Shown piece by piece: positions 40,741 through 43,900 of a stretch of DNA of 64,000 nucleotides; position 1 is the stretch's first letter, and every line of letters starts with the position of its first letter. The DNA is from Octopus vulgaris (taxonomy: Eukaryota), in the NCBI GenBank assembly GCA_951406725.2, contig OX597814.1, forward strand, positions 198,834,001 to 198,898,000. Reading direction: 5' to 3'. Made by a program: the position numbers and the translations under genes. Under the pieces are notes generated by a model, which saw only the letters and a program-made list of their open reading frames with translations, did no database searches and was not told the origin of the DNA.

Positions 40741-40840
40741 CACCCCCCCCCCCTTCCGGTCATTCAATATGTGACGTCGTGTGTATCGTTGGTGTTTTTC
40801 TTTCTCCGTCTTCCCTTCCTTGGATCTTTCCTTTTTCTAT

Positions 40841-40875
40841 GTTTCTGACGAAGAGCTCCGCTCGAAACGTTAAAT
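40841..40875 (+). ncRNA. Minimal type I hammerhead in a (TA)n-flanked ~220-bp unit (40755-40975)
   Basis: GTTT-CTGACGA-A-GAGC-TCC-GCTC-GAAA-CG-TT-AAAT. Confidence 0.8.
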
Positions 40876-40969
40876 CCTCCTTTTTTTCCTCTCCTGAGCG
40901 TCTGATAACACTATACTTGTTCCACGTTCTCGCGTTGTTGTGTTTTCTCTCTGTGTTTTCAGTTTGTAT

Positions 40970-41034: not shown

Positions 41035-41280
41035 TATGAGGTTCACGTAAAAATAATTTCGGTTTTTAATCTTCATCATCGGCAGCAAAATAACTCAGTG
41101 GATAAAAGTGGAATAACACTCATTATAGTTAGCTCATTTTTTACCAACACAAAATTAGCCTCTTTATTCCGGTTGAGTAGAGATCCGGAATCCTTAGGCT
41201 GATGAATTCTTCGAAGGCCTTTTGAGTTACTGCCGCTTGGTTGTTGAAAACCTGTTACAGAAATTTATCGAGATGTTTCG
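41035..41280 (-). mobile_element. Mariner 3' fragment
   Basis: Manual translation gives KHLDKFL...KAFEEFISLRIPDLYSTGIKRL, followed by a TIR-like end with TA. Confidence 0.7.
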
Positions 41281-41450
41281 CTGTGTGGTAAGAATATTGC
41301 TTCCTAACCACATGGTTCCAGTTTCAGTCCCATTGCGTGGCACCTTGGGAAACTGTCTTCTACTTTAGCCTCGGACCGACCAATTCTTTGTGAGTGGACT
41401 TGGTAGACGGAAACTGGAAGAAGCCCGTCGTGTGTGTGTGTGTGTGTATG

Positions 41451-41481
<31 letters not shown>

Positions 41482-41487
41482 GTATAT

Positions 41488-41726
41488 ATTGTTTACATTA
41501 TTTACATTTGACGGATATTTGTCCTCATCTTGTTCGTTGCTAACGCAACGTTTCGGCTGATTTACCCTCCAGCCTTCATCAGGTGTCTTGAAGAAATTTC
41601 GAACCTGGGTTCTCATTCTTGAAGTATGCTTCGTTGTTATTTTTATTCAGGTCACTGCCTGGAGTAGAACTTAGAATCTTGGGGCAAGTTGCCCGCGTTC
41701 TTAACCGCTACACCATATACCACGGG
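41488..41726 (-). mobile_element. tRNA-headed, hammerhead-carrying SINE-like element
   Basis: Minus strand: A-box-like tggtgtagcgg, B-box-like agttctactcc, then an HHR, then a (TA)n tail. Confidence 0.7.
41542..41587 (-). ncRNA. Type I hammerhead ribozyme (canonical CUGAUGA)
   Basis: GACAC-CTGATGA-A-GGCTG-gagggtaaat-CAGCC-GAAA-CG-TT-GCGTT; one mismatch in stem I. Confidence 0.82.
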
Positions 41727-43304
41727 TATATATAAAGGCGGCACTTTAGCATGGCCGCAGTCAAATGACAGAAACAAGTAAAAGAATATTTGTTTGCATG
41801 TCTTGACAACCGATGTTGGTGTGTTTACGTCCCCGTAAACTAGCGGTTCGGCAAAAGACCCCGATAGAATAAATAGTAGGCTTACAAAGAATAAGTCCTG
41901 GGGTAGATTTCTTCGACTAAAGGTGGTGCTCCAGCATGGCCGCAATCAAATAACTGAAACGAGTATAAGAATGAAATGAAATTTGGTCGGAGATAGGTTT
42001 GGTCGGAGAAATGAAATTTGGTCGGAGATGACGTAAAGTGGTCGGGGCAGGGCTCCATAAACCGGTTTATTCAACACCTGCAGAGTCTTTTTTGCGATAT
42101 CGGAAGTCAGTCGATATCGCGAAAGAAAAAGAAACAAATAGGGTCCTTTTCGACGCACTAATAACTGTGCATTTTGCTGTTTCCTATGTCTGCTTGATGC
42201 TTTTACCAAAATTCAAAACATTTTAGGAGCAGATTGATTGCATATGAATCTTTTGCAGCTTCTCTTTGCAAAAAGGATTTTTGCTTCGTTGTCGAGTTCT
42301 GAAACTCTATTAGAATAATGCTTAATAGCTTAAATTCTTTAGACTAGTAATTAAGATTTTAATTAGTTTACGACAAAGAAAAAACATCACGTTCTTAATT
42401 AGATCCATTAATTTCGATAATACCTTACAGAGGTTTACAGATTCATTAATGAACCTGGAATTGTTTACCTGGTTGTAATAATCTGTAATATAACAGAGTT
42501 CCACACACGAAATGTAACCGTATAACATGGAACGACGCATTTTTCGTTATCGTGCGAAACCACACGACACATAGTCAAGGAATAATAGAGGTCTGTTGCA
42601 CAAAAGCAATGTGAAGAACGCTTCATAACGGCGACTTGTTTTTTATATTTTCGTCCATCTTGTGTGTAAAATCTAACAACTGTTAAACTCTAAACTCTGC
42701 GTTTAGTTCTTCTTCAACCTTTGAAATTGCCTTGCTTGTCTCTCTGTTTCGTATAGTGCTTGTTGCATCATTGTTTTGTGCTGTTTTCTCCCTTTCTATT
42801 GTCATCATAATTGACTTACGCTCTATTTTGTTATTGGGAGTTTTCAAACGGTGGGTGGAGAGGATGAGAGATGATTAAAGGAAGGGGTAGAGGTGGATAT
42901 AGTGAATCGTAAATACAAGAGTGGAGGCATGGTCAATGGCAATTATGAGATGGAGGTAGAGGTGATAAAAAATGAAAGTGAATCAGGGTGAGGTGGTGGC
43001 GAGCTGGCAGTATAGAAAGGTTAAAGAACAGCAGGGAGACAACGGGTGCAGGATAGAGGGCGGTTATTACAGGAGTTGGTGAGAGAGAAGGAAAGAGAGA
43101 AGACAGACATATACTGGCAGAGATGATGTAAGAAGTGTGTATGAATGAATGTAGTGAGAGGCGAATAAAGTAGCAACATGGCCTAAACGCAACGTCACGA
43201 ATCTTTTCGCCATACAGTCCTTTTTTCTCTTTGAAGGTACCTGTCCCTGACCCAACCTGGGAATAGATGCACTATGTTCTACGGGCAGTATTTAAGGGGG
43301 AAAC

Positions 43305-43900
43305 AGGCGGCGAGCAGGCAGAAGCGTTAGCACGTCGGGCGAAATGCTTAGTGGTATTTCGTATGCCGTTACGTTCTGAGTTCAAATTCCGCCGAGGTCG
43401 ACTTTGCCTTTCATCCTTTCGGAGTCGATTAAATAAGTACCAGTTACGCACTGGGGTCAATGTAATCGACCTAATACCTATGTCTGTCCTTGTTTGTCCC
43501 CTCTGTGTTTAGCCCCCTGTGGGTAATAAAGAAATAGGTATTTCGTCTGCCGCTACGTTCTGAGTTCAAATTCCGCCGAGGTCGACTTTGCCTTTCATCT
43601 TTTCGGGGTCGACTAAATAAGTACCAGTTACACACTGGGGTCGATGTAATCGTCTTAATCCGTGTGTCTGTCCTTGCTTGTCCCCTCTGTGTTTGGCCCC
43701 TTGTGGGTAGTAAAGAAATAGGTACTCCGTCTGTTACGTTCTGAGTTCAAATTCCGCCGAGGTCGACTTTGCCTTTCATCCTTTCGGGGTCGATAAATTA
43801 AGTACCAGTTTCCCAACTGGGGTCAATGTAATCGACTTAATCCCTTTGTCTCTCTTTGTTTGTCCCCTCTGTGTTTAGCCCCTTGTGGGTAAGAAAAAGA
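43305..43900 (+). mobile_element. SINE multimer: head plus 3 tandem bodies
   Basis: Same family and junction (aagaaataggta) as 14113 and 15212. Confidence 0.9.

Follow-up and report, generated by a model that had tools for sequence, protein, structure and literature searches.

A short repeat on the minus strand of the Octopus vulgaris genome was found to be, almost certainly, a solo copy of the pseudo-LTR (pLTR) from an autonomous Penelope-like retrotransposon (PLE) and not a separate SINE. The tRNA-Arg-derived head of this pLTR carries an A box and a B box and, judging from its sequence, likely served the element as a Pol III promoter. The repeat lies at 41488..41728 (-) of the window, which is the whole 64,000-nucleotide stretch that was analyzed (contig OX597814.1, positions 198,834,001 to 198,898,000). 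It is the short-ended form of the pLTR, which lacks an optional tail of ~30 nt, and shares ~90% identity with the majority sequence of the family at positions 2-235. That majority sequence, 263 nt in all, opens with a head of 73 nt and continues through (AAT)n, a linker and the hammerhead to the tail. The first-pass annotation had described a tRNA-like head with A/B-box motifs, a linker, a hammerhead and a tail on the minus strand, and this was confirmed at 41728-41488. In the window copy, the head is followed on that strand by an AAT-rich linker, the hammerhead, a tail that runs to ~41488 and then (TA)n/(CA)n.

The head occupies 41650..41721 (-) and has a decayed cloverleaf, with the promoter boxes retained in the family. 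The A box (41705..41715, -) matches the A-box pattern in both the window copy and the majority sequence. By the same kind of pattern comparison, the B box (41661..41672, -) has one key base altered in the window copy and is intact in the family majority. The majority head was aligned to 50 host tRNA sequences of eight isotypes, an incomplete isotype sample, and tRNA-Arg(ACG) was the best match, with 50/73 identical positions and a z of ~9. Rfam at gathering score gave no matches on the window, calling neither head nor ribozyme, and at E<=1 on five loci it returned only microsatellite noise. Default ARAGORN made no tRNA calls on the window, and its relaxed setting called the head in 6/30 loci and left the majority sequence uncalled. 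The tRNA likeness proposed earlier was therefore not recovered by Rfam or default ARAGORN, and it was the alignment to host tRNAs that brought it out for the family majority. By this alignment, the head of the pLTR is tRNA-derived. As in a SINE2, the 5' end is fixed and the head there bears both boxes.

Immediately upstream of the head is a short 5' leader in its fold-back form (41722..41728, -), which covers the inferred RNA start region at -7 to -4 from tRNA +1. Downstream, the (AAT)n tract (41633..41649, -) varies in length from copy to copy and coincides with a second cluster of 5' truncation points. The first 43 codons of the PLE ORF follow at 41488..41616 (-), with the ATG at 41616. This frame is open in the window copy and overlaps the ribozyme.

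The predicted ribozyme (41542..41587, -) is a minimal type I hammerhead with a short, 5-bp stem I, an unpaired A before a long stem II and a palindromic 4-nt stem III. These are the features described for the minimal hammerheads of PLEs, which have a short stem I, a long stem II with an unpaired base before it and a palindromic stem III (PMC4209133). The hammerhead of the first-pass annotation thus stands, and its label as canonical does not, since its stem III is a 4-nt palindrome and its type is the minimal one of PLEs. The predicted cut site falls between 41547 and 41546 (-), and the window copy has one stem I mismatch. Across the family, the hammerhead core is intact in 69/135 copies. Minimal hammerheads are described as weak, with dimer-dependent cleavage (PMC4209133). 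When two copies of the unit's ribozyme were folded together, no clean dimer model was obtained. A cluster of 5' ends at the predicted cut was not seen among 51 inverted partner pieces, of which one began at 178 and three at 182-186.

The family is large and its parts travel together. All 40 candidates scored (of 4,066) were near-full-length matches, the window's own copy included. Genome-wide, there were 5,936 exact hammerhead 24-mers and 2,314 matches to a head 35-mer pattern, with no matches for either reversed control. The eight largest contigs were sampled at even spacing in 60 stretches of 10 kb. A piece of the unit was found in 16 of these, which scales to ~75,000 insertions in the genome (43,000-121,000). 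When loci were selected by the head, the hammerhead body lay downstream in 29/30, and the remaining locus was cut after the linker. Head and hammerhead therefore co-occur with fixed ends in many copies, as had been anticipated. Repeats are nested at the window locus, so that a PLE fragment could have come to lie next to a tRNA-like SINE head there by chance; the 29/30 head-selected loci and the 40/40 near-full-length matches make the probability of this negligible. Such a chance juxtaposition is refuted by the genome-wide co-occurrence and by the head at 27/30 loci selected by the ORF end. Contigs from four other runs, with four other organism codes, also carry the element, and in two of the four the pieces listed bridge the ORF end and the head.

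The distribution of the family is uneven, with 27 of the first 30 exact matches falling within 1.7 Mb near the start of contig C1 (G000:C1:170000-1700000), compared with ~2 per Mb genome-wide. In one locus (L013, 1160-2207), four complete short units and a fifth, partial one are arrayed head to tail at 93-96% identity to the majority sequence, a retrozyme-like form. It was the only such array among 30 loci, and dispersed and inverted forms predominate.

The identity of the unit comes from what lies upstream of the head. Some copies share sequence there, and a 26-mer from just upstream of the head has 737 exact matches genome-wide. This sequence encodes the C-terminus of an RT-endonuclease ORF, with the stop ~35 nt before the head. 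Loci were then selected by the ORF end alone (30 fetched of 150 matches). All 30 belonged to this PLE family, 27 continued into the head and 22 into the ribozyme. At the other end of the unit, the last 129 nt of the window copy encode 43 residues that match the N-termini of full-length PLEs, with 19/33 identical to an 847-aa relative (P0004, E 1.5e-8 among 37 proteins). In one locus (L224), pLTR positions 203-263 run in frame into the N-terminal domain of the ORF, and a whole pLTR follows the ORF. An autonomous PLE with the matching 3' tail, which had been suggested as something to look for, was thereby found. Two complete pLTRs flanking one ORF were not seen among 20 fetched copies, and L224 is a partial tandem.

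The ORF-linked copies (38) and the copies that start at the head (97) have the same majority base throughout head and body, the single exception being a site near the short 3' end that lies within repeated sequence. Their mean divergence from the majority is 7.0% and 6.1%, respectively, with a lowest value of 2.2%. The short and ORF-linked copies are one lineage. The first-pass annotation had proposed a tRNA-derived SINE that borrows a PLE tail. This was not supported, because the head lies ~35 nt after the ORF stop in an autonomous PLE, the supposed tail is the start of the PLE ORF and no diagnostic site separates the 97 copies from the 38. A non-autonomous lineage with a head absent from its partner, as in a SINE2, was not found, as the head is present at 27/30 ORF-end loci. 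The unit also has no A-rich or simple-repeat 3' tail of its own, and copies end at two points inside the ORF start. Its proposed mobilization by PLE machinery was borne out, with every PLE mark present. The copies show the features of endonuclease-bearing (EN+) PLEs: an ORF with RT and, at its C-terminus, an endonuclease of GIY-YIG type, a minimal type I hammerhead, an optional tail, an inverted partner and a partial tandem. In a comparison of flanks for target-site duplications, a shared flank of >=9 nt was seen in 7/28 non-inverted copies and in 2.5% of mismatched pairs, the former including one tandem array and low-complexity cases.

The protein was placed with several searches. A 569-aa natural frame matched RVT_1 at E 2.7e-6, which is below the curated cut-off. 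Pfam GIY-YIG gave no direct match to this family, and 2,735 relatives of the PLE protein were found at E<=1e-30, some with PF01541. A PDB sequence search gave only weak RT matches, and no relatives were found in viral contigs. In a quick tree of 35 rows, which held no named Poseidon sequence, the ORF fell far from the Neptune-type ORF, and the Neptune Cys linker is absent. The element may belong to the Penelope/Poseidon clade, a name given here by ORF layout and motifs. A second Poseidon-type family that could serve as a control was not found among the 30 loci fetched of 150 matches in the genome, all of which were this family. The family now looks dead, as the longest open frame among 150 scored matches is only 569 aa. 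Neptune-type PLEs, found by a Pfam GIY-YIG search of the genome, were rejected as the partner because they do not share this pLTR. One Neptune-type family in the genome (G000, e.g. L037 and L042) has many 781-aa open frames and was likely active recently.

Where copies begin was examined in 67 hammerhead-selected insertions, after 3/70 were dropped as the other half of an inverted pair. Of these, 33 stop short of the head (19 of them around the AAT tract), and 34 reach it. Of the latter, 26 end at -20..+15 and eight go beyond, as far as -1,199; where an end was scored at -11 to -20, it reflects a fold-back or an AT match. Three further copies had their heads split off by later insertions. Per base, truncation is ~14 times as frequent at the head as upstream of it, and only 2/16 sampled insertions extend upstream of the head. 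Inverted pieces are present at the 5' end of 39/67 insertions. The 3' ends fall at 223-235 in 37 insertions, at 257-263 in 24 and elsewhere in six.

Short copies match the long form only to -7, followed by a fold-back of the head, which suggests that the template began at about -7 to -4. This inferred start is 11-14 nt before the A box, which is a common spacing in tRNA-type promoters. In RNA reads from one study, loose ends of 505, 402 and 366 reads were found at -4, which matches the genomic junction. Reads in that study came from both strands about equally, as expected from copies embedded in host transcripts. A pile-up of RNA 5' starts was not listed in the study, and the raw reads are uninformative on polymerase, strand or start.

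A second hammerhead-bearing solo repeat lies in the window at 40770-40960 (+), with its core at 40845. It is ~190 bp long, T-rich, located in (TA)n and without a tRNA head. This repeat has a sharp 5' end and 2,513 exact 27-mers genome-wide, and it abuts an inverted Neptune-type ORF in one locus (L331). Since this T-rich, head-less PLE repeat also has a fixed 5' end, fixed ends likely mark RNA starts generally and do not name the polymerase.

The coding strand was examined for T-runs that would stop Pol III. In 46 copies, covering 56,389 aligned nt, TTTT occurred 19 times, along with one longer run, and no site was common to more than two copies; the first 400 nt of the ORF were covered by only one or two copies in this alignment. 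With any of five foreign codon usages, the probability of finding zero TTTT by chance is <=0.003; with the codon usage of the family itself, it is 0.02. A Neptune-type PLE of similar T content has 6-7 TTTT in 1.8 kb.

Related PLEs were taken from metagenomes, where 13 loci were found and 12 long ones examined (L371 was omitted as too short). Eleven of the 12 contain 2.6-13.9 TTTT per kb, and the other, L361, has none in 1,695 nt. L361 is also the only one of the 12 with an A and B box pair in its pLTR, which lies between the ORF stop and the ribozyme and is followed by a short AAT tract. A pair of this kind did not arise by chance in any of 20,000 resamples. L361, metagenomic in origin and 38% identical to this family, is an intact PLE of 855 aa that lies in a tandem unit of 2,791 bp. 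Rfam gave no tRNA or ribozyme match on its pLTR. The head of L361 is unlike the head of this family and the two elements are not sisters in the quick tree, which suggests, without proof, that the two heads were captured separately. Two TTTT do occur within the first 200 nt of the L361 ORF, and over the whole ORF its deficit is weak (P 0.15 with its own codons, 0.00-0.24 with foreign ones). The hammerhead is visible in 6/12 relatives, one of which has only 102 nt upstream, so just four relatives are verified as head-less. These four are rich in T-runs. T-run-free frames without a known head were also found: L373 has no TTTT in 852 nt and its pLTR is absent, and a LINE-like frame in L129 has none in 1,479 nt.

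Three PLE loci drew attention for other reasons. Just after the ribozyme of L361, inside the start of the ORF, is a histone-type 3' stem-loop (2219-2234; Rfam Histone3, 15.9 bits, sub-gathering), which could be a chance match or a handle for non-polyadenylated RNA. L372 and L373 are animal-type PLE fragments in contigs labelled as bacterial genomes and are probably contamination.

With a tRNA-derived promoter motif at the start and no T-runs that stop Pol III, the element was likely copied from Pol III RNA. For the short templates we hold Pol III use to be probable, with some confidence; a full-length Pol III RNA of the PLE is a more doubtful proposal. As observed, the ORF stop is followed by 35 nt, the head, (AAT)n, the ATG, the hammerhead and the two alternative 3' ends, with the ORF coming last. 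In the proposed mechanism, a PLE would have captured a Pol III promoter, the tRNA-Arg-derived head, in its pLTR. RNA would start 4-7 nt before the head in the upstream pLTR and, without a terminator, would read through the ORF. The element's RT would then initiate at an internal site, within the first 120-160 nt of the ORF, in the way shown in vitro for Anolis PAc. A start in the 5' pLTR would run off at the RNA start and give a SINE-sized solo pLTR, often with a fold-back or inverted partner, and a start in the 3' pLTR would give 5'-truncated ORF copies. The minimal hammerhead would cut rarely and spare most templates, because it would need a second copy to cut. For Anolis PAc, two internal RT start sites have been described in vitro, the ORF begins at the ribozyme and cleavage is unnecessary for insertion in vitro (PMC11167929). 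Put more generally, and only tentatively, some autonomous, coding PLEs may be transcribed by Pol III along all of their 2.7 kb, with a tRNA promoter that they captured and a coding strand purged of terminators; this would have at least two origins (this family and L361), and internal RT initiation would shed the SINE-like end copies.

Several observations weigh against Pol III. They include the weak T-run deficit of L361 and its two early TTTT, the T-run-free frames that have no known head, the small number of relatives verified as head-less and the thin coverage at the start of the ORF. The RNA reads come from both strands about equally, without a listed start pile-up, and the translation of an uncapped RNA lacks an explanation. 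The one dissected PLE promoter, that of D. virilis Penelope, is described as a LINE-like internal promoter with Inr and DPE (PMC2377424), and Kojima considers the processivity of Pol III too weak for autonomous elements (PMC10886601). The head could instead be a passenger that derives from an earlier insertion of a tRNA or SINE piece into the pLTR of an element made by Pol II, with the 5' cluster coming from a Pol II start or from cDNA snap-back at a 5-bp hairpin across the head start. ORF-linked copies do contain the hairpin and 9/33 leader-bearing short copies continue as a long fold-back, but the hairpin is weak (-4.6 kcal/mol) and 42/75 short copies, aligned from +1..+4, are without the leader that fold-back requires. 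A passenger would fit the resemblance of head plus (AAT)n to a retrocopy, the head-less PLE repeat that has a fixed 5' end too and the Pol II-like character of known PLE promoters (PMC2377424). It does not account for boxes that are intact despite a decayed cloverleaf, and it leaves unexplained both the absent T-runs and a second head-bearing, T-run-poor element. We regard this origin of the head as unlikely.

A narrowed form of the earlier SINE model was also considered, in which the short copies form a genuine SINE. Pol III would amplify it from solo-pLTR masters and the PLE protein would mobilize it in trans, with Pol II transcribing the coding element. This would explain why short copies outnumber ORF-bearing ones, with so few sampled insertions (2/16) reaching upstream of the head, and it has a parallel in the head-to-tail array of short units in L013. 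A short master could also explain the common bases at -8/-9, found in 48 and 41 of 75 short copies and unlike the long form; these bases can instead be the product of a 2-nt fold-back each time. The model is rather improbable, as no body position separates short from long copies, their ages are alike (6.1% vs 7.0% from the majority) and the unit is without a terminator or simple-repeat tail of its own. It also gives no reason for a T-run-free ORF. We thus favor the solo pLTR of a PLE with a probable Pol III promoter.

Known EN+ PLEs of the Penelope/Poseidon type, Anolis PAc and D. virilis Penelope, resemble the octopus element in having a single ORF with RT and a C-terminal endonuclease (PMC11167929, PMC2377424, PMC8557442). 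Also shared are a minimal hammerhead in the pLTR that overlaps the ORF start (PMC11167929, PMC4209133), and two 3' ends ~30 nt apart, an inverted, 5'-truncated partner and AT-rich targets (PMC8557442). The optional tail of PLE copies is given as 30-40 bp, and the inverted partner as 5'-truncated (PMC8557442). The octopus element differs in its pLTR, which begins with a tRNA-derived A/B-box head where RNA is inferred to start, and in a coding strand that lacks T-runs; the dissected PLE promoter is LINE-like (PMC2377424). What appears to be new, as far as sequence can tell, is a PLE terminal repeat carrying a tRNA-type promoter motif; the rest of the layout is of a known PLE kind.

Schistosome Sm-alpha and Sj-alpha are also short repeats in which a type I hammerhead comes after a Pol III-type promoter. 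Those are described as non-coding and often tandem, with a canonical ribozyme that frees monomers, in contrast to the octopus unit, which is part of a coding PLE and has a minimal ribozyme (PMC6765202, PMC8490949). The TRIMp3 elements Cassandra, Helenus and Ajax likewise have a small-RNA-derived Pol III promoter within a terminal repeat, but they are short, non-autonomous LTR elements whose autonomous partners are expected to use Pol II, and the octopus motif is in an autonomous element (PMC10886601). Animal non-LTR retrozymes are short, PLE-related units with a type I hammerhead. They form tandem arrays processed to circles, with no promoter described, whereas the octopus family is mostly dispersed or inverted (PMC7761336; bioRxiv 10.64898/2026.07.22.740005). 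A term search of the accessible text of the latter preprint gave no mention of tRNA or Pol III, and tRNA, Pol III and promoter were absent from that of PMC13343379.

The Octopus SINEs OK, OR1 and OR2 (Ohshima and Okada 1994) have tRNA-derived heads, as does the unit. They are set apart from it by description only, and the short unit may already be named. One of these SINE families is said to be of tRNA-Arg origin, with a length near 270 bp. OR1 and OR2 are listed as CORE-SINEs (PMC4758252, PMC4824008). A PLE with a tRNA-derived promoter was not found in the full-text papers searched; repeat libraries (Repbase, Dfam, SINEBase and the Zenodo octopus library), subscription papers and supplements may hold the family.

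The unit had been placed in the central (TA)n of another SINE. The host is indeed an abundant SINE-like repeat, with the unit at its microsatellite, though a 56-bp duplicate of that repeat's 3' end (41733..41788, +) adjoins the insertion and separates the unit from the 3' half at 41796..41976 (+). The 5' half and the microsatellite occupy 41280..41487 (+), have ~60-70 matches per bin in 600 kb of sampled genome and are collinear with the 3' half elsewhere. Further along the window, a 184-bp SINE-like unit is present in three tandem copies (43353-43896). A dense tandem cluster of tRNA-Arg genes with ~206-bp spacing was also observed (G000:C2:211887000-211908000).

Retrotransposons are usually sorted by polymerase, with Pol III transcribing short, non-coding SINEs and Pol II transcribing coding elements. 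If true, a coding PLE that combines a terminator-free ORF with a Pol III promoter breaks that sorting and makes one ask how translation of its uncapped RNA proceeds. Should Pol III RNA be the source of the short copies only, this is still a route to SINE-like repeats without a separate SINE, through capture of a promoter by the pLTR and internal initiation by RT. The same route could explain the origin of repeats that combine a promoter and a hammerhead, such as Sm-alpha. The 5' ends of solo pLTRs would offer a means of mapping PLE start sites from sequence only. For annotation, ~75,000 insertions in this genome that are likely filed as a SINE would be the ends of a PLE.
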